A DNA stretch of 64,000 nucleotides from NCBI GenBank assembly GCA_947501605.1, contig CANMWZ010000003.1:32001-96000 (forward strand). Reading direction: 5' to 3'. The translations under genes and the position numbers were made by a program. A model generated the notes under the pieces. That model was not told the DNA's origin. It saw only the letters and a list, made by a program, of their open reading frames with translations, and searched no databases. This stretch comes from Planctomycetota bacterium. GTDB lineage: Bacteria; Planctomycetota; UBA1135; UBA2386. Below are positions 11,727-20,832 of this stretch, in pieces (positions within the stretch are counted from its first letter, which is position 1; the number at the start of each line of letters is the position of its first letter).

Positions 11727-13130
11727 ATGCGACGGCCCATCGATGACGACAGCCTGCCCGCCAAAGTCGACTGCTTGATCGTCGGTGGCGGCCCCGCCGG
11801 TGCAGCCCTCGCCGGGTTGCTGGCACGCAGCGGCCACATGGTCTTGGTCGTGGACGACGGCGCGCTGCGAACAGGCTCTCCGCTCGAGACGTTGATGGCT
11901 TCCGCCTTGCAGTCGCTGGATCGCTGCGGCCTCGGGGAGATCGTTCGCGCGACCGCCGAAGTCGACCGCCGACGGCACGGCGCGCGGTGGGACGCCGACG
12001 AGGTTGCTTGGCGCGACGAGGGCCGCTCCGGCCTGTGCCTTCGCCGCGGAGTGTTTGATGACGGACTTCGCGACTGGGCCGTGAAGTGTGGAGCGCGCGT
12101 GCTTCGACCGGCAACGGCAGTGGAGCTACCAGATGGTGGTCAGGGCTCCGCCCGAATCCGAGTTGCAGGTCGCGACCTTTTCATCGAGGCGAACACGATC
12201 GCCATTGCGACCGGACGCCGGAGTGTCGCCGTGCTTGCCAGCGCAGAGATCGTTGAGCAGGGACCGCCGACCGCGGCGTTCGCGTTCCAGATCGAGGCCG
12301 AAAGCGAGACCGGAGCAGTGGCCATGGTGACGGCCGCGCCCGACGGCTGGTGCTGGTGGATCGGGGACGAGCGGGGTGGTGCGCGGCTGGTGGCGACTGT
12401 GGACGCAGACACGTTGGGCGAACCACTGCGCGCGGTCGTCGACCGCGTCCTCGAGTATGCCGGCAGTGCGTTCGGTGGCCGACGCGCAGCCGTACTCGAA
12501 ACTGCCGTGCGGGCAACCTCTCGCCGCGCCACGACGCCGCGTGGCTATTGGCTGGTAGGTGACGCGGCGGCGACACTCGATCCGTTGGCAAGTCAGGGGA
12601 CAGAGAAGGCCTTGGTCGGAGCCGAATCCGCAGCACTGGGGATTCGCACGGCTCTGGCGAACCCAGCGCTGCGAGGGCTCGCGATCGCCCAGCATCGCCG
12701 CTGGGAGCACGAGCTGTATCAGGCCCACGCGCGCACGACGGCGGCGTTCTATTCTCGCGTAGGTCGCTTCGCGGAGCGCCCGTTCTGGGCACGCAGGTCA
12801 CAGCTACCGCCGTCGCCGAACTTCGGTGCGCTACCGCATCGCCTCGTTCGCGCACCGGATCTGCTCGAAGGCCCGATGCTGGTCCGCCACACCGAGGAAC
12901 TGGTCTTGACGCCTGGGTTCGCGCGCTTGGCGGCGGAGCCGATCGCTCGCATCGGCCGCGTCACGGTGGCGCCGCTGCTGGCCGCATTTGCGCGTCCGCG
13001 CTCGGTCGCAGACGGGCTTGCCATCGCCGGACAAGACCCCAGGCTGTTCGTGATGGGCAGCGCCGTCGTGCGCGCCGCTGTCGTCGAACTCTGGCGAGCA
13101 GGCTTGCTCATCGCACCACAGATCGACTGA
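11727..13130 (+). CDS. qhpG: FAD-dependent monooxygenase (halogenase-like), QhpG-like CTQ biosynthesis enzyme
   Basis: IVGGGPAG FAD motif, RGVFDDGLR, GWCWWI, VGDAAATLDPLASQG; small C-terminal wHTH-like extension (AVVELWRAGLL); adjacent to qhp genes. Confidence 0.75.
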   Translation: MRRPIDDDSLPAKVDCLIVGGGPAGAALAGLLARSGHMVLVVDDGALRTGSPLETLMASALQSLDRCGLGEIVRATAEVDRRRHGARWDADEVAWRDEGRSGLCLRRGVFDDGLRDWAVKCGARVLRPATAVELPDGGQGSARIRVAGRDLFIEANTIAIATGRRSVAVLASAEIVEQGPPTAAFAFQIEAESETGAVAMVTAAPDGWCWWIGDERGGARLVATVDADTLGEPLRAVVDRVLEYAGSAFGGRRAAVLETAVRATSRRATTPRGYWLVGDAAATLDPLASQGTEKALVGAESAALGIRTALANPALRGLAIAQHRRWEHELYQAHARTTAAFYSRVGRFAERPFWARRSQLPPSPNFGALPHRLVRAPDLLEGPMLVRHTEELVLTPGFARLAAEPIARIGRVTVAPLLAAFARPRSVADGLAIAGQDPRLFVMGSAVVRAAVVELWRAGLLIAPQID

Positions 13131-13140
13131 CCGCACTACC

Positions 13141-13809
13141 CTACGGCCGCAGAGATAGTGCGTTCGCCAGCATCCCGGACGTACGCGCAACCGCGAGGCT
13201 GCTGCCGTGAACGTGGGAGGGTGGCAAGCCCGGGACACCAGCCGGCGGGAAAGGCGACGCGAACCAGAACGAACCGGCGCCGACGCTCTGGAGCCGCGGC
13301 TGGGCCGCAGGCACGTTGCCATCGGCAACGACGAGTTCGAGTCCACCAATGGCTGCAAGGGCGTTGGCTCGGCCGCACGGAAGAGCTGCCGGAACGACGA
13401 TGCGCACGCCGCGATCAAGGAGGAACTTGGCGGCGTCCTTGAGCAGGGATTGCGCTTGCCGTGAGGCCCCGAAGTCGTCGTCGAAGCCAAGGCTGCAGTT
13501 GACGACGGCAACATCGGTCATCGCAATCTGACGCAACGCCGCCACCAAGGCCCGAACCGAGCTTCGACCGGCGGCATCGAACACGCGCAGGGGCACGACA
13601 ACCGCTCTCGGGCAGACACTCCACAGCGTCGTCGCAACCGCAGTTCCGTGTCCCAGTGGATCGCGAGGAATCGGCTCAGCGAAGGCGCCGCCGTCGGCGT
13701 CGATGTGCCAACCCGATTGGAGCGCGTAGCCGCGGCATCCGGGATGGCCAGGATCGATGCCGCTGTCGACCAGGGCGATGCGCACCGGACGCGGGGCGAT
13801 CTCAGACAT
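13141..13809 (-). CDS. qhpE: Small subtilisin-like S8 protease, QhpE-like leader peptidase
   Basis: IALVDSGID (Asp), GHGTAVA (His), VVNCSLG, HGSSLA (Ser); no signal peptide; last gene of the qhp operon. Confidence 0.82.
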   Translation of the reverse strand: MSEIAPRPVRIALVDSGIDPGHPGCRGYALQSGWHIDADGGAFAEPIPRDPLGHGTAVATTLWSVCPRAVVVPLRVFDAAGRSSVRALVAALRQIAMTDVAVVNCSLGFDDDFGASRQAQSLLKDAAKFLLDRGVRIVVPAALPCGRANALAAIGGLELVVADGNVPAAQPRLQSVGAGSFWFASPFPPAGVPGLPPSHVHGSSLAVARTSGMLANALSLRP

Positions 13810-14944
13810 CCAACATGTAGACCTGCCCCTGGATCTCGCCGTCGAACTCGACCACGCGCAGGAGCTGGAAGGTGACGGCATCGAACACCTGGAAGTCACT
13901 GCCGGCGCCGCCGACGTAGACCTTGCTACCGTCCGGCGCGATCGCTGCCAGCGACTGCCGTGGACGGAACTCGGTCTGGAACTCACGCAGCTTCTTGCCA
14001 TTCTCGAGGTCGTACAACTGGATGGTCGTCTTGCGGTCACTGCCGCCACCCCAGCCACCATTGCTCGACACAGTCAGTTTCGCATCCCGCGAAAGATAGG
14101 AACCGAACCCACTTGGTCCCTGACCCCACTCGACCATATCGGTGATCTTCTTCTGCTGGAGGTCGATATCCACGTAGCCCCAACTCGAGCGGCTGTGCTG
14201 CACCGGGTCGCTGTACGAGCACAACATGCGGTACTTGTTCGGGTCTCTGCCAAACAGCAGATCCGTGCGGCGCAGTGAGATACGGCCCTGGCCGGCGAAC
14301 TGTGGGGTGGCGAGATCGATCTTGCCCGTCTCCTTCAACGTCTTGGGGTCGACGATCTGCAGATTGCCGTCGCGGTCGAACACGTGCCATGAGAGGCCGT
14401 CGGGAGAGATCCGCGCACCGCGAGAGAGGATCTGCGGCATGCGCCGCATCTTGCGCACGATCTTTCGTTCGCCGACGTCGTAGAGCAACGTCTGCGCTGG
14501 CTGAAACTCATAGCGATCCACCAACTTCTTCACTCGATCGGTCTCGACGTACCATTGGGTCCCGCCGGGCAGTTCCGAAATGCTGCGCACGCGCACGATG
14601 ACGCCTTCTTCACTGAAGTCGTGGACCGACGCCACCGCGCCCTGCTTGCAGTCGACGATCTCAACCTTGCGCTGCGTGTCCGTGATCACGGCGAAGTGCT
14701 GACGGTCGAACAACAGGGTCACGCCCCAGGACATGCCATTCTGGAGTTGGATCTTCTTCACCACCGTGTCGGTGACTGGATCGAACTCGACCATGAAATC
14801 GGGATACGCCGCGAACCAGAAGTGCGCGGCGGGTACCGCAGGCGCGGCAGCGACGGGGTCCTGCGGTGGCGCCGAAGTGCACGCACATGCAGCGACCGAA
14901 GCCAGGCCAGCCAGCAAGAACGCGGCGATCGTAGAACGCGTCAC
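13802..14944 (-). CDS. qhpB: Quinohemoprotein amine dehydrogenase beta subunit (beta-propeller), with lipoprotein-like signal
   Basis: GTG overlaps the qhpC stop. YVTN-like propeller blades (APDGSKVYVGGAGSDFQVFDAVT); position between qhpC and qhpE. Confidence 0.8.
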   Translation of the reverse strand: MTRSTIAAFLLAGLASVAACACTSAPPQDPVAAAPAVPAAHFWFAAYPDFMVEFDPVTDTVVKKIQLQNGMSWGVTLLFDRQHFAVITDTQRKVEIVDCKQGAVASVHDFSEEGVIVRVRSISELPGGTQWYVETDRVKKLVDRYEFQPAQTLLYDVGERKIVRKMRRMPQILSRGARISPDGLSWHVFDRDGNLQIVDPKTLKETGKIDLATPQFAGQGRISLRRTDLLFGRDPNKYRMLCSYSDPVQHSRSSWGYVDIDLQQKKITDMVEWGQGPSGFGSYLSRDAKLTVSSNGGWGGGSDRKTTIQLYDLENGKKLREFQTEFRPRQSLAAIAPDGSKVYVGGAGSDFQVFDAVTFQLLRVVEFDGEIQGQVYMLDV

Positions 14945-15273
14945 GGGAACACCAAATCGATGGACTTCCAGTCTTGCACGGGCGCGCCACACGAGGCGGT
15001 CCACTTCGGGAAGTTGGTGACGCCGTCTGGCACTTGCGCTGGCCAATAGCAGGTGTGGTAGCAATCGTACAGGTCGCGCTCGATCGGCTGGCAGAGGCCG
15101 TGGACGCCGCCGCTGCTGTCGACTTCCCAGCCCGGAGCGAACACCGTCGTGCAACCATACGGATACTCCGTGGGCGGCGGATCCTGAGTCAACGGCATCA
15201 GGGCACCGCGCTGTTCGACGACGAGAGCCGCGATACGGCGCGCCTTTTGGTTGAGGGGGCGAACGTGTGTCAT
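14941..15273 (-). CDS. qhpC: QHNDH gamma subunit precursor (CTQ cofactor peptide)
   Basis: Leader HVRPLNQKA plus core GCTTVFAPGWEVD...LCQPIERDLYDCYHTCYWPAQVPD...QDW...VFP, matching the QhpC pattern. Confidence 0.95.
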   Translation of the reverse strand: MTHVRPLNQKARRIAALVVEQRGALMPLTQDPPPTEYPYGCTTVFAPGWEVDSSGGVHGLCQPIERDLYDCYHTCYWPAQVPDGVTNFPKWTASCGAPVQDWKSIDLVFP

Positions 15274-16691
15274 TGCGATTCGTACCTCGCGAAGAACTTG
15301 GGATCGTGCGCCATGATGCGCGCGTAAGCCTTCAGACCTTGGTCAACGTGACCGCGGATCCAGTCGCAAGCATGCAGGTTCGCTTTGCGTGCGTCCCCGT
15401 GGCGCACGTGCGCCTCGTGGTAGCAGCCACCGGCGCACAGCGGCCGGGCAAAACAAGTCTTGCAGTCGGTCTTGCGATCAATGTGGGCCTGTTCGAGAAA
15501 CGCCGTGCGGATCGACTCATCGACGCCCTTCTGCACCGTGCCGACAGCGTGGCTCTTGGATTCGACGAAGCGATGACAGAGAGCCAGTTCGCCCTCGGTC
15601 GAGACCCCGAGCAAACCAAGGCCCGCGCCACACGGATGCGCTTTCTGGATGCCCTGGTGGAGTTCGCGCAGCAGATCGTTGAGGTTGGCAAAGCCGTGCG
15701 CGCGACCCGCAATCGCGGCGGTCACGAAGTCCTCGGTGAGCGTCGCAAACTCGGACAACATGCGATCGTAGGCTCCTGGAGACAGCTCGTAGCCCCGTCC
15801 CGGCGCCGCCGTCACCGGCGCGAATCCGACTTCTTCGAAGCCCAGGTCATCGGTGAGATACCGATAGGTGTCGAGCACCGAGCCGGCGTCGTGGGTCAGC
15901 GTCACGCGCGCCCCGATCGGACGTCCGCGTTCTCGTCGATTGGTTGCGATCAAGGTGCGGATGCGTGGCTCGATGTCGGCGAACGAGCCCTTGCCGCTCT
16001 TGTAGCGACGGTGGCGGTCTTGTTCCTTCTCGTCGCCATCGATCGAGATCGTGATGCCAAAGCGGTGGGCGACCAGGAACTTGATGACCTCATCCGTGAG
16101 CAGGGTCGCGTTGGTCGTCAGCGAGAAGTGAATTCGCTTCTGGTGCCGCAGTGCCTCGGCTTCGGCATAGTCGACCGCTGCAATGATCGTCTGGAAGTTC
16201 AGCAGCGTCTCGCCGCCGAAGAACGTGATCGTCAGAACCGAGCGTTCGCCGCTGCTGCGGATCAAGAAGTCGATCGACTGCTTGGCCGTCTCCGGCAACA
16301 TCATCGCGCGCCCAGCCGGCGCATTGGCGGCGGTCAGCTTGTCGGCCCCGTACTCGTAACAATACGTGCAAGACAAGTTGCACTTGTTGGTGACGTTGAG
16401 CACCAGCGTCGCCAGCGGGAACGGCATCGGGGGCAGCGCCGCGCGCGGCGGCGAAGTCTCGCCATCTGGCCGCACGATGCCGAGGTCGATCAGGTCGCGC
16501 AGCGCCGCCTCGGCCTCGGGTTCCCCGAGTTCACGGAGAACCGTCACCGGATCCGCCGGCTCCAAGAAGGCGGCTGCAAGCCGATCCGCCAACGCATCGA
16601 CAGCGTGGATCGCCGCCGAATCCGTGAGGTAGAGATACGCGTTGCCACGGTCGTCGGTAACGCGATGGTGGAGGCCAGTGCGAAGCTTCAT
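15270..16691 (-). CDS. qhpD: Radical SAM/SPASM thioether-forming maturase QhpD (PeaB)
   Basis: N-terminal RRE-like region; CNLSCTYC; FFGGETLLN; SPASM CGAG...CHRF...CKTCFARPLCAGGCYHE; ATGA coupling with the qhpA stop. Confidence 0.95.
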   Translation of the reverse strand: MKLRTGLHHRVTDDRGNAYLYLTDSAAIHAVDALADRLAAAFLEPADPVTVLRELGEPEAEAALRDLIDLGIVRPDGETSPPRAALPPMPFPLATLVLNVTNKCNLSCTYCYEYGADKLTAANAPAGRAMMLPETAKQSIDFLIRSSGERSVLTITFFGGETLLNFQTIIAAVDYAEAEALRHQKRIHFSLTTNATLLTDEVIKFLVAHRFGITISIDGDEKEQDRHRRYKSGKGSFADIEPRIRTLIATNRRERGRPIGARVTLTHDAGSVLDTYRYLTDDLGFEEVGFAPVTAAPGRGYELSPGAYDRMLSEFATLTEDFVTAAIAGRAHGFANLNDLLRELHQGIQKAHPCGAGLGLLGVSTEGELALCHRFVESKSHAVGTVQKGVDESIRTAFLEQAHIDRKTDCKTCFARPLCAGGCYHEAHVRHGDARKANLHACDWIRGHVDQGLKAYARIMAHDPKFFARYESQ

Positions 16692-19027
16692 CGTTCTTCC
16701 CATTCGAGTCGGGTCCAGCGGATGTACTGCGGCACAGTGACAATCAGGCTCGCGCGGGCGCGGAAGCTCTTGCGCTCCATGAGTGGCGTCCCGCCGGTCG
16801 GCTTCAGCTCGTCGCCATCGCGCGGCGCCGGCATCGGCACTGGAATGCCCGCAGGCTCAGGCTTCGCCGCTACGGACGCTGGTTTCGGATTCGGCTCCTG
16901 CGCGCCGTCGCCGCCTGATTGTCCCGACGGCTGGGGGTCAGCACTCTCGGCCGGCTTCTCTGGGACATCCGGCTTCGGGGCTGCCGTGGACTTCGGCGGT
17001 GGTTCAGGACGCACCGGCACATCCAGTGCGACGGTGCACTCGACATAGACTTCGCCGATGTTGTTGGCGGACCATTTGCGCTGCACGTTCGGGCCGTCGA
17101 TCGCAGGCGTGAACTCGCCCGTCGCGCCATCGAGCGTGCCGACATAGCTGAGGTCGTCGTCATCATCGCGGACGATCGCTTCGCGCAGTGAGAACGTCGC
17201 CGGCACCATCCACAAATCGACATCGTCGGCAGTGAAGGGCTTCTCGTCCGGTCCGCGTGTGACGGTCACCGCTTCGAAGCGCTCGAGTTGCTTGGGGAAG
17301 CGGGCGCCACCAATGCGCGCAAGTCCCTGGGTCGGACGAATGCGCACGTAGTCGACGGCGTCATAGAGGCGGATTCGCGCGCGCGTTGGCTCGATGCCGA
17401 AGGCGACATCGCGCAAACCGACCGGGGTGCCAGGCGCGACATCGAGCCACAGTCGGCAGTCCGTAGGACTCGTACGTTCACAGCGCGTGACGGTGACTCC
17501 GAGACCGAGATGAAAGTCCGCAGCACGGAGCGTTTCCGGGAACGCGTCGCCGCGCACCGAGAGCACGTGGTCCTTGGCCGGCACGGTGACAAACGGTGCC
17601 GAGATCGCGAGGACACGCGGCACGCCGCGATGACGCACCATCGAGATGTCGACGCCGATCTCGTCGTAATCACCGGTGAAGAAGCGCCCGCGCATCGAGT
17701 CCCAGCGCTCGTCCAGCAGCAGCACCTCACGCCATGTGCGACCGCCTTCGCCGGGATCCGTCGCCCGACCGCGCCAGCTGTAGCCGCCGTAGAGCAAGCC
17801 CCGTCCGCGGCGGTCGATCTTGGCGCCACCCTGGACCTCGAGTTGCCAGTGCACTTCGTAATCGCCGTCCTCGACGCGAACGATGGTGGCGGTTCCGATC
17901 AGATCGCCGCGGCCGATCTCGTGACCCGTGACGGTCCAGTTCCCGGCGAGCGGCACCTCGCGACGGTTGATCGCCCACTCATTCCAGTCGTCGCTGAACA
18001 GCGCCTGCTTGTCGCCGAGTGCGGCGAGCACCCGATCGCCGCGATTGCCTTGGCGCGGACCTTGACCGCCGTCGCCAGAACCGCCAGCCGGCCCAGAACC
18101 GCCCGCCGGCGCGGCCGCGCCGCCGGTTGCACCGCGTCGGCCGCCGCGCGCCGCTGGGGCGGCGCCGCCACCTTGGCCACCGAATCGCTCCTCATCGTCC
18201 GGTGGACCGCCGCCGATCGAACCACGCGCGAGCGGGAACATGGCGACGTGCGTGTTGCGCAGCTGTTGCCATTCCTCGGCGTCCCGGGCCTGGCCGAGCA
18301 CGCGACCCAAGGTGTGGCAGCCCGAGCAAGCTTCGCGGAAGTCGGCGTCCTGGTGCTCCTCGGACCAGTGCACCCGCCGTTCACTTTCGTAGAGGCTGCG
18401 CTCGGCCTCCGCTCGGGTGAGGCCGTGGCGATCGGCGAGATAGCGCACGACCGCTTTGGCATCGGCGGGGGACATCTGCAGCCCGTGCAAGCGAATCATC
18501 CGCTTCAACGACTCGGACCAACCCTCGGGCGACTTGCGCATGTAGCTGATGCGCGTCATTAGGCCATTGGGGTCGCGCTGGTGACAACGAGCGCAGTGCG
18601 TCTCGACCAGGAGATCGGTCACTGGGATGCCGCGGCGCTGAGGCTTTGGCTCTTCGACCGCACCTTCGTCCTCGTTGTCCGCATTCTGCCCATTGCCCTG
18701 GCCACCTTCGGCGCCGCCGCGACGACCGCGACGTGGCGCGTCACCCTCGGGTCGCTCGACGATTGCGCCAGCCGCAGGCGGTTGTGTCGGAGCGGTGCCC
18801 GGCTCTTGGCCGCTCGCGGGTGTTGTCGTGCTGGCTCGGGCCGATGGAGTCTCCGGCGCGGGCTGCGGCACTACCGCGGGAATCGGTGGGTGGCCGGCTG
18901 GGAGCGGCTGCTGGGCCGGCTCCTGCGCCGTGAGCGCGCCGGACCACGTGAAAACGAGAAGGCAGCCAGCCAGGACGGATTTCATGCGCAGGGGGAACCG
19001 CGGTGAGAGCTCGTCGCGCATTGGCAT
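16688..19027 (-). CDS. qhpA: QHNDH alpha subunit (diheme c); alternative start ATG 18985
   Basis: Signal peptide; CARCH and CSGCH heme motifs; RISYMRKSPEGW...RMIRLHG; LYGGYSWRG; GEFTPAIDGPN; LIVTVPQY. Confidence 0.95.
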   Translation of the reverse strand: MPMRDELSPRFPLRMKSVLAGCLLVFTWSGALTAQEPAQQPLPAGHPPIPAVVPQPAPETPSARASTTTPASGQEPGTAPTQPPAAGAIVERPEGDAPRRGRRGGAEGGQGNGQNADNEDEGAVEEPKPQRRGIPVTDLLVETHCARCHQRDPNGLMTRISYMRKSPEGWSESLKRMIRLHGLQMSPADAKAVVRYLADRHGLTRAEAERSLYESERRVHWSEEHQDADFREACSGCHTLGRVLGQARDAEEWQQLRNTHVAMFPLARGSIGGGPPDDEERFGGQGGGAAPAARGGRRGATGGAAAPAGGSGPAGGSGDGGQGPRQGNRGDRVLAALGDKQALFSDDWNEWAINRREVPLAGNWTVTGHEIGRGDLIGTATIVRVEDGDYEVHWQLEVQGGAKIDRRGRGLLYGGYSWRGRATDPGEGGRTWREVLLLDERWDSMRGRFFTGDYDEIGVDISMVRHRGVPRVLAISAPFVTVPAKDHVLSVRGDAFPETLRAADFHLGLGVTVTRCERTSPTDCRLWLDVAPGTPVGLRDVAFGIEPTRARIRLYDAVDYVRIRPTQGLARIGGARFPKQLERFEAVTVTRGPDEKPFTADDVDLWMVPATFSLREAIVRDDDDDLSYVGTLDGATGEFTPAIDGPNVQRKWSANNIGEVYVECTVALDVPVRPEPPPKSTAAPKPDVPEKPAESADPQPSGQSGGDGAQEPNPKPASVAAKPEPAGIPVPMPAPRDGDELKPTGGTPLMERKSFRARASLIVTVPQYIRWTRLEWEER

Positions 19028-19122: not shown

Positions 19123-20832
19123 CTACGACGCCCGAACCTGACCGCCCTCTAGGTGCACGATGCGATCCACGGCCACCGAGTCCGGTGGGCGATGGTCGAT
19201 CCACAACACGGTGCAAGGCCGCGGCAGCACCGAAAGGTAGCGCGCGAGGACGCGCTGCGCCGCCGCATCCAAGAACGCGAATGGCTCGTCGAGCACCAAG
19301 AGATCTGCCGGGCGCAACAACGTGCGCACAAGCAACAGTCGCCGCCACTGCCCGGCACTGAGTTCGTGGCTGCCGGCGAAGCTGCGGCCAAGCGGCGTGC
19401 CGAAGTCGTCGGGCAAGCCCGTCAACAGTTGGTCGAGACCCGCGGCCGCTGCACGCGCGCGGAGCGAAGCGTCCTCTTTGGCCTCGGCGCCAAACTCCAG
19501 GTTGTCGCGCACCGTGAGTTCGAACCCAACCGTGTCCTGGAAGAACACCGCAACGCGGCCGCGTAACTCCGCGGCGGCAACCGTGCGCAGATCGACGCCA
19601 TTGAGCAGCACTTCGCCCGCAGTCGGCAAGGCCAACCGACACAGCAACCGTACCAGGGTCGACTTGCCAGCGCCGTTGCCGCCAAGCAACGCGATGCGCT
19701 CGCCCGCCGCAATCTCGAGATCGACGCCGCGCAGCGCCGGCGAGGAACTCCCTGGGTAGCTGTAGCACACACCACGCAGGGCGATGGCCAGCGACCCCGC
19801 GGGCACTCGCGATGCGATCGCTGCGGTCACGGCCGCGGGCAAAGCCAGCGTTGGCTTGGTGGAAAGGAACCGGAACAGATGCTGCACGAAGCGCTGGTCG
19901 TCGCGCAGCGCAGCGTGGGCGAGCAAGCTGTCGCGCATGCCGTTCTGCGTTCGTTGAACGGCCTGCGCCTGCAGCAGCAATCCACCCAGCGTCAACTCCG
20001 AACGCAATGCCGCGAACGCGAGGAACGCATAGGCAGCAAACATGGCCAGCGTCGACAACGCTTGCGCCGCAGTCTCGGCGCGCGTGCGTCGGCGCATGAG
20101 ATCCAACTGCTCCTCGGTGAGGCGCGCGCGTTGTCGGTCGACGCGGATGGCCAGTGGTTCGGCGAGGTCGAGCAGGCGCACGTCCTTGGCCCAAGGCCGG
20201 CCGACGAGAATGCCGGCAAGGTAGCCGAGCCGACGCTGGGCTCCGGTGTTGGCTTCCTGCCACGAGAACTGCAGCCGGCTGTGGCGATGGCGCACGAGAA
20301 CCTGCGGCACGGCGGCGAGCGCGACCACCAGTGGCAGCCAGACGGCAGCCGTCGCGGTCGCGAGGACCATCGAAACCAACATCGCCGAAGCGACCACGAA
20401 GGCGGCAAGATCTTGGACGACCCTCGTTGGTCGGGTCAGAGCGTCGCCGGCGGCCCGGTGCAGCAGGTCGCGCACTTCTGGGGATTCGACCTGCTCCAGG
20501 TCGAGCGCGGCAGCGTGCCGTTGGACCAAGCTGGCGCAGCGATCGCCGCACAGGCGCGCGTGCCGTTCCCCGATCGCCGTGGCCACGGCGCCAATCACGG
20601 CACCAAACAGGGCGATGACGGACGCGGCACCGACCGCAAACCAGATCTCGGCTGCGACATCGGGCACCCCGCTGACGCCGCGTTGGACGGCATCGAGCAA
20701 GCGCTGCATCGCTAGCAACCCGAGCAGGGGCAGCGCACCTTGGCCGAGGCGCAGGGCGAGGTTCTGCCACAGCAGCGAACGACCCGCGAGTGCCGCAAGA
20801 CGCAGGGCCGATCGCAACGGGACGGCGGCCAT
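19123..20832 (-). CDS. ABC exporter, fused TM and ATPase domains (probable QhpF-like peptide exporter)
   Basis: N-terminal TM domain, Walker A GGNGAGKST, signature LSAGQ, Walker B LLVLDEP; upstream of and co-oriented with qhpA. Confidence 0.88.
   Translation of the reverse strand: MAAVPLRSALRLAALAGRSLLWQNLALRLGQGALPLLGLLAMQRLLDAVQRGVSGVPDVAAEIWFAVGAASVIALFGAVIGAVATAIGERHARLCGDRCASLVQRHAAALDLEQVESPEVRDLLHRAAGDALTRPTRVVQDLAAFVVASAMLVSMVLATATAAVWLPLVVALAAVPQVLVRHRHSRLQFSWQEANTGAQRRLGYLAGILVGRPWAKDVRLLDLAEPLAIRVDRQRARLTEEQLDLMRRRTRAETAAQALSTLAMFAAYAFLAFAALRSELTLGGLLLQAQAVQRTQNGMRDSLLAHAALRDDQRFVQHLFRFLSTKPTLALPAAVTAAIASRVPAGSLAIALRGVCYSYPGSSSPALRGVDLEIAAGERIALLGGNGAGKSTLVRLLCRLALPTAGEVLLNGVDLRTVAAAELRGRVAVFFQDTVGFELTVRDNLEFGAEAKEDASLRARAAAAGLDQLLTGLPDDFGTPLGRSFAGSHELSAGQWRRLLLVRTLLRPADLLVLDEPFAFLDAAAQRVLARYLSVLPRPCTVLWIDHRPPDSVAVDRIVHLEGGQVRAS

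Follow-up and report, generated by a model that had tools for sequence, protein, structure and literature searches.

The fifth cysteine of a gamma subunit precursor

The QHNDH gamma subunit precursor QhpC of this planctomycetotal locus has one cysteine more than the solved gamma subunits. In the model enzymes, the subunit bears three QhpD-made thioethers and CTQ (PMC7876137, PMC8172795). The pairs are given as Cys7/Glu16, Cys27/Asp33, Cys41/Asp49 and Cys37/Trp43; all four cysteines lie in thioethers and the Cys...Asp/Glu pairs are six to nine residues apart (PMC8172795).

The window, meaning the whole stretch of 64,000 nucleotides analysed here, encodes QhpC in a 110-residue ORF at 14941-15273 on the minus strand. 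It has exactly five cysteines, at 41, 61, 71, 75 and 95, and its translation reads CGAPVQD at residues 95-101 (14971-14991, minus strand). It aligns gap-free over 71-72 residues with 1JJU_C (E 5e-24) and 1JMX_G (E 1.3e-22), the only two distinct solved gamma sequences found. The offset is 34, residue n+34 of QhpC being model residue n. The gamma subunit of 1JMX/1JMZ comes from Pseudomonas putida (PMC11951088).

The initial annotation had matched four QhpC pairs by spacing to the three thioethers and the CTQ pair, and the alignment confirms this, with C41/E50, C61/D67, C75/D83 and C71/W77 on model C7/E16, C27/D33, C41/D49 and C37/W43. Its extra Cys95, in C-x5-D spacing to Asp101, is present in the window sequence as described, and its statement that model gamma subunits have four Cys only is correct for their aligned parts (residues 5/6-76). 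In both solved subunits, the counterparts of Cys95 and Asp101 are Ala61 and Asp67, and neither has a Cys at 61. A likeness to the C61-D67 ring of QhpC had also been seen in an internal Pro; this analogy adds nothing, because a Pro lies between Cys and Asp in only 99 of 304 five-Cys-type cores.

14941..15273, minus strand: qhpC, QHNDH gamma subunit precursor (PF08992, 110.6 bits, cut-off 25; NF037958, 126.8 bits, cut-off 50; 1JJU_C as above)
15124..15153, minus strand: canonical ring 1, Cys41...Glu50 (model Cys7-Glu16; alignment and codons)
15073..15093, minus strand: canonical ring 2, Cys61...Asp67 (model Cys27-Asp33; alignment and codons)
15043..15063, minus strand: CTQ pair, Cys71...Trp77 (model Cys37-Trp43; alignment and codons)
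15025..15051, minus strand: canonical ring 3, Cys75...Asp83 (model Cys41-Asp49; alignment and codons)
14989..14991, minus strand: Cys95 (model 61; codon TGT), the fifth Cys and proposed sulfur donor of a fourth thioether, aligned to Ala61 of 1JJU/1JMX and present in 120/120 best homologues
14968..14973, minus strand: Asp101 (model 67), the proposed acceptor, and Trp102 (model 68); Asp in 306/306 cores with the Cys and 135/144 without, Trp with 0 changes in both groups

With chain C of 1JJU/1PBY and chain G of 1JMX/1JMZ, QhpC shares the four Cys, Glu16, Asp33, Asp49, Trp43, Asp67, Trp68 and a leader peptide. It differs from them in Cys for Ala at 61 and in the subunit end at Pro76. From here on, Cys61 and Asp67 denote the model positions of Cys95 and Asp101.

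The surroundings of the cofactor (15025-15153, minus strand) also depart from the models, with Asp12 replaced by Ala, Asp39 by His, Pro40 by Thr, Trp42 by Tyr, Gly36 by Asp and Ala32 by Arg. The columns of model 12, 39, 40, 42, 36 and 32 are fixed in the four-Cys cores and variable in the five-Cys cores. These substitutions may reflect other amine substrates or a different QhpG interface.

The qhp cluster of the window

The window locus is a qhp cluster of the ordinary kind, with a gamma subunit of the widespread five-Cys type. Its genes have the same qhpADCB order as in the model system, and candidate E-, F- and G-like genes adjoin them.

19123..20832, minus strand: qhpF-like ABC exporter, upstream of qhpA (PF00005; generic ABC exporter families only in NCBIfam, the QhpF assignment coming from position)
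16688..19027, minus strand: qhpA, dihaem alpha subunit (TIGR03908, 387.7 bits, cut-off 274; PF09098, PF14930, PF09099, PF09100; two CxxCH, axial Met and His conserved)
15270..16703, minus strand: qhpD, radical SAM/SPASM thioether-forming maturase (TIGR03906, 510.5 bits, cut-off 453; stop overlaps the qhpC start, ATGA)
13802..14944, minus strand: qhpB, beta-propeller subunit, GTG start inferred (TIGR03907 the sole family match, 38.2 bits, below the cut-off of 223; position; overlaps the qhpC stop, GTGA)
13141..13785, minus strand: qhpE-like subtilisin protease, start inferred (PF00082, 31.4 bits, over cut-off; NF049966 QhpE, 86.5 bits, below the cut-off of 165)
11727..13130, plus strand: qhpG-like flavoprotein monooxygenase, convergent on the operon (NF049967 QhpG the best match, E 6e-53, 180 bits, below the cut-off of 240)

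Four-base overlaps join qhpD to qhpC and qhpC to qhpB, and the window genome has one qhpC and one QhpD-like gene. The QhpD passes its family cut-off and has both the CxxxCxxC motif and the seven SPASM Cys; it stays below cut-off in the PapB and SCIFF models (265/340 and 216/425). Its ten cluster Cys are conserved in 93-94 of 94 five-Cys loci and in 10/10 four-Cys loci. The beta-propeller Pfam matches of QhpB are below cut-off.

QhpA (16688-19027, minus strand) is 779 residues long, compared with 511 in Paracoccus pantotrophus. Its N-terminal stretch is long and Pro/Gly-rich, and Gly/Pro-rich segments are inserted behind the haem domain and within the last domain. The N-terminus of QhpB (14870-14944, minus strand) places Cys20 and Cys22 behind a hydrophobic stretch and resembles a lipoprotein signal.

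Distribution of the five-Cys type

Absence of Cys95 from close homologues had been set beforehand as an observation that would speak against a fourth ring. The W-x3-C-x5-D-W motif was found in 120/120 of the best homologues (best 120 of 231 found), hence Cys95 is not there by chance. In the window's phylum, a Pfam-model search of 401 genomes gave 29 matches in 27 genomes, and 29/29 have the Cys and the Asp. Among the loci of named genomes, the best 80 of at least 599 all have both; they are mostly from Planctomycetota and Acidobacteriota, and two are from Rhodospirillaceae. The nearest named relatives are uncultured Planctomycetota.

The Cys is also borne by representatives of clusters named after Bacillus badius, Aneurinibacillus, Planococcaceae, Nitrospinota, Tectomicrobia and Deltaproteobacteria. 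The B. badius protein led to six metagenome loci, of which five carry the Cys and the sixth is truncated. Cultured carriers of the five-Cys form are in the Bacillus badius and Aneurinibacillus cluster and Edaphobacter modestus DSM 18101. Gram-positive qhp operons have been surveyed in Nakai 2014 (cited through PMC8172795).

The four-Cys form has another distribution. A proteobacterial sample, drawn with the Pfam model from 401 genomes in the phylum of one Rhodospirillaceae genome, gave seven matches, and the six besides the centre lack the Cys; three of these six have Asn67. Five of 26 plasmid records were examined, and those of Paracoccus, Pseudomonas, Leisingera and Cupriavidus lack the Cys while that of Novosphingobium has it. 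These surveys of homologues, phyla and plasmids are similarity-ranked and give no family-wide frequency; among the sequences examined, they make the fifth Cys the rule outside one mainly proteobacterial group. The five-Cys form is usual in the Planctomycetota, Acidobacteriota and Bacillota examined, and the four-Cys models belong to one proteobacterial clade.

Three alphaproteobacterial operons are of the five-Cys type, two in Rhodospirillaceae (L078, L079) and one on a plasmid of Novosphingobium sp. RL4 (L114). The QhpD proteins of L079 and L114 are nested in the Acidobacteriota clade of the sequence tree, which suggests transfer.

The fifth Cys is a real feature of a known enzyme family and is strictly conserved. 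The new QhpC topology that the initial annotation had proposed survives the sequence tests as a candidate, while its implied rarity does not, the type being widespread and not peculiar to one genome. The surprise is moderate, since the chemistry and the enzyme family are already known.

Possible dependence of the aspartate on the cysteine

Conservation was counted on cores of the subunit. Of 657 sequences, a full-core filter kept 545, which collapse to 450 unique cores. Cys7, Glu16, Cys27 and Cys41 are set by this filter and Asp33 and Asp49 partly so, and positions 61 and 67 are left free. An earlier Cys count had left 113 of 469 proteins unparsed, and a 50%-representative search (133 matches) returned mostly fragments and frameshifted ORFs.

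Asp67 is present in 306/306 unique cores with Cys61 and in 135/144 without it, and Asp-Trp follows Cys61 in all 306. The spacing is x5 in 301 of 304 cores and x6 in the other three. Hence, an invariant Cys is accompanied by an invariant downstream Asp, and x5 belongs to the known set of QhpD spacings (x5, x7, x8). Other acids downstream of Cys61 are not invariant, with Asp at model 72 in 245/306. Pro48 and Trp68 are as invariant as Asp67, and neither is a known cross-link site.

Co-conservation of C95 and D101 had been suggested as a check. Both are there in every Cys-bearing core, but such plain co-conservation says little taken alone: Asp67 also occurs in the two solved four-Cys subunits and in 133/140 four-Cys cores (95%). 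Asp67 must therefore serve some other purpose as well, or be a remnant that is being lost only slowly. In section 12 of PMC7876137, which prints Glu67 where the PDB sequence has Asp, position 67 is one of the surface acids proposed to dock on QhpG.

Changes were also counted on trees. Six rows were removed before the parsimony count, four of them error- or frameshift-like (P0128, P0138, P0149, P0203) and two chimera-like (P0410, P0427). On separate FastTree trees, Asp67 is unchanged throughout the 304 Cys-bearing cores (0 changes, tree length 33.1). In the 140 Cys-less cores (16.6) it changes 6 times and is replaced in seven rows (4 Asn, 2 Ser, 1 Gly). No other column except 61 combines 0 changes in the five-Cys group with 2 or more in the four-Cys group, although by the number of unchanged columns (28 against 10) the four-Cys group is the better conserved.

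If changes followed branch length, a split of 0 against 6 would have a chance of about 0.001, which is a crude figure. The six changes were counted on a FastTree tree built from about 70 columns, and at least 3 changes are needed for the three residues. The four-Cys search (best 120 of 2453) used a profile with Asn67 in 2 of 6 rows and may enrich Asn, and the five-Cys searches used Asp-bearing queries. The counts lean towards a constraint on Asp67 that depends on the Cys, but they amount to one lineage-level contrast, drawn from the single lineage without the Cys.

The two chimera-like rows join a proteobacterial-type front half to a five-Cys-type back half. They are possibly assembly chimeras or natural recombinants.

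Possible fates of the thiol

We put the probability that Cys95 and Asp101 form a fourth QhpD-made Cys-Asp thioether at roughly 70%, because the other cysteines of the subunit end in thioethers, no partner thiol is apparent and the Asp six places on seems to track the Cys. More than three rings on one substrate has a precedent in the class, as PapB makes six Cys-Asp bonds on one peptide (PMC8172795). QhpD and the ranthipeptide maturases (PapB/freyrasin, CteB/SCIFF) are alike as radical SAM/SPASM enzymes that join Cys to a methylene carbon of a downstream Asp or Glu. They differ in that QhpD is reported to make three QhpC rings (PMC7876137, PMC13692751, PMC11951088), and the available parts of these papers describe no fourth natural site.

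Cys95 could instead stay a free buried thiol that packs like the Ala of the models, with Asp101 conserved separately for helix capping or for docking on QhpG or QhpD. Ala61 in 129 of 144 Cys-less cores does mean that the position calls for a small side chain in any case, and the 95% retention of Asp67 and its naming as a docking acid fit this too. A merely small residue should, however, exchange with Ala or Ser, and outside the proteobacterial clade no such exchange was seen save in the error-like rows. A drift of Asp67 only where the Cys is absent is left unexplained as well, so we consider a free thiol unlikely. An AlphaFold2 model built on a 31-row alignment was too poor for use (mean pLDDT 48.6, pTM 0.24).

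A disulfide in place of the thioether, to alpha, beta, another gamma or another of the four Cys, would suit an exported enzyme, and the window subunits do have non-haem Cys within the counted parts, three in alpha and two in beta. A gamma-gamma bond is compatible with the sequence. Yet no non-haem Cys column is conserved in alpha across 68 aligned five-Cys loci, only the two haem motifs being so, and none in 84 beta subunits of five-Cys loci, the best column reaching 27/83. In 23 of 65 five-Cys operons, three of them loci retrieved with the B. badius protein, non-haem Cys are absent altogether from alpha, counted from the first haem motif onward, and from the final 315 residues of beta. The inter-subunit disulfide is thereby rejected as a general explanation. 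Within QhpC, the other four Cys still have every one of their acceptors, so none of these Cys is free for an internal disulfide. As a disulfide also gives no reason for the constraint on the Asp, its probability appears very low.

Cross-linking to another residue, such as Trp102 or Trp91, which would add a second Cys-Trp bond, or at a different carbon, is about equally improbable. Cys-Trp chemistry is already in the subunit, and of the two Trp columns, 68 never changes in either group and 57 changes only twice. Both Trp are, however, equally conserved in four-Cys proteins and so show no dependence on Cys61, whereas the Asp seems to track it; Trp57 is moreover replaced by Tyr or Phe in 5 of the 306 cores with the Cys. 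Least credible is a metal or haem ligand. An invariant Cys/Asp pair could belong to a metal site, and a non-haem metal is compatible with the data, but gamma has no further conserved Cys or His for one (His at model 39 in 86/306). In the five-Cys alpha subunits, aligned with the four-Cys ones, Met is kept in 70/70 and His in 69/70 at what we take to be the haem axial positions. With the four axial positions all filled by conserved His and Met, no haem site is left for a thiolate and the haem ligand role is rejected.

A clade with Thr for the CTQ Cys37 (P0155, P0426, P0438) keeps Cys7, Cys27, Cys41, Cys61, Trp43 and Asp67. Thus, all three of its cores still have the Cys61/Asp67 pair.

The proposed fourth ring

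Returning to the thioether, we infer a simple extension of the known maturation. QhpD, bound to the leader of QhpC, closes three thioethers one after another, each between a Cys and the methylene carbon of an Asp or Glu (PMC7876137, PMC11951088). In P. putida, QhpG promoted the completion of the rings (PMC7876137). After these, the leader-bound enzyme would make one more ring. It would abstract a hydrogen from the beta carbon of Asp101 and the sulfur of Cys95 would then bond to that carbon (model 61-67). The ring would have the same size as ring two, and the product before CTQ formation is predicted to be 8 Da lighter with one free Cys. From the sequence, the unmodified, untagged precursor with Met1 has an average mass of 12261.8 Da, and its tryptic peptide 91-103 a monoisotopic mass of 1447.66 Da.

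In the known pathway, QhpG hydroxylates Trp43, QhpE removes the leader and QhpF exports the subunit (PMC7876137, PMC11951088). The later steps would be kept here, with QhpG and QhpA building CTQ from Cys71 and Trp77. The fourth ring would staple the C-terminal segment and presumably be structural and not catalytic. The proteobacterial lineage, which includes both crystallised enzymes, would be without this staple, and its Asp seems to have begun to drift.

If the ring is there, the textbook covalent structure of gamma, three thioethers and CTQ, would cover the proteobacterial branch only, and most other lineages examined would have one ring more. The natural reach of QhpD would extend about 20 residues further along its substrate. 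The forms with and without ring four would be a natural gain/loss pair for the roles of a staple in folding, export and CTQ formation, and the QhpD homologues would be multi-site protein-stapling enzymes. Going by the distribution, the four-ring form is probably the commoner architecture outside Proteobacteria.

The available parts of PMC7876137, PMC8172795, PMC13692751, PMC11951088 and PMC10288494 make no mention of the fifth Cys and give three thioethers wherever QhpC is treated. At the level of titles and abstract openings, neither the Cys nor a fourth ring was found among the open papers listed; the QhpC alignments of the primary QhpD papers may already show the Cys.

History of the fifth Cys

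The direction of change was examined on QhpD trees of 41 sequences (29 five-Cys-type, 7 four-Cys, 5 other SPASM), redundancy-filtered from 105. The seven four-Cys rows form one clade with 100/100 support. This clade joins the five-Cys clade of Planctomycetota and Acidobacteriota (98/95), and five other Cys61-bearing loci branch outside.

By this topology, a single loss of the Cys in the four-Cys lineage, with five Cys as the ancestral state, is favoured rather than established. It is only favoured because AU tests do not reject five-Cys monophyly (p 0.65, 0.30 and 0.50), the outgroups sit on long branches and LG+G4 was used for the trees without a mixture model. In the window genome, no outgroup rSAM was found.

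A bolder proposal is that the four-ring subunit, with four thioethers and CTQ, is ancestral and most widespread, that the three-ring one is a proteobacterial reduction and that the seven-Cys subunits described below, whose further Cys have an acid four residues on, continue the series, so that natural QhpD may place as many as five or six rings, in three sizes, on one protein. We regard it as possible but doubtful.

Seven-Cys variants and QhpD relatives

Some QhpC proteins have seven Cys (P0218, P0220, P0223, P0385, P0447 and relatives). They occur in real qhp clusters (L026/L122, G261:C163; L027/L123, G104:C23; L029/L124, G194:C231), QhpD being found at 3/3 of these loci and QhpA at 2/3. An extra Cys72 is present in 24 cores and is followed by x2-Pro-Asp in 24/24, and Pro-Asp is at that register in 0 of the 426 others. 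The second extra Cys lies at position 8, in a cluster named Deltaproteobacteria, or at about 19 with a Glu four residues on. Ring spacings are shifted in these variants, to C27-x4-D, C27-x8-D and C7-x9-E.

C-x3-D/E is the spacing of PapB. The extra pair of the seven-Cys QhpC could form either further C-x3-D/E thioethers or a mutual disulfide.

QhpD-like rSAM genes with 34-37% identity occur on a Rhizobium leguminosarum plasmid (L134), in Nostoc (L135) and in Mycetohabitans (L138). Their neighbours are ferritin-like and hypothetical genes, with flavin monooxygenase- or halogenase-like ones in 2/3 and no annotated qhpC. In the trees, all three rSAM proteins branch among the basal QhpD.
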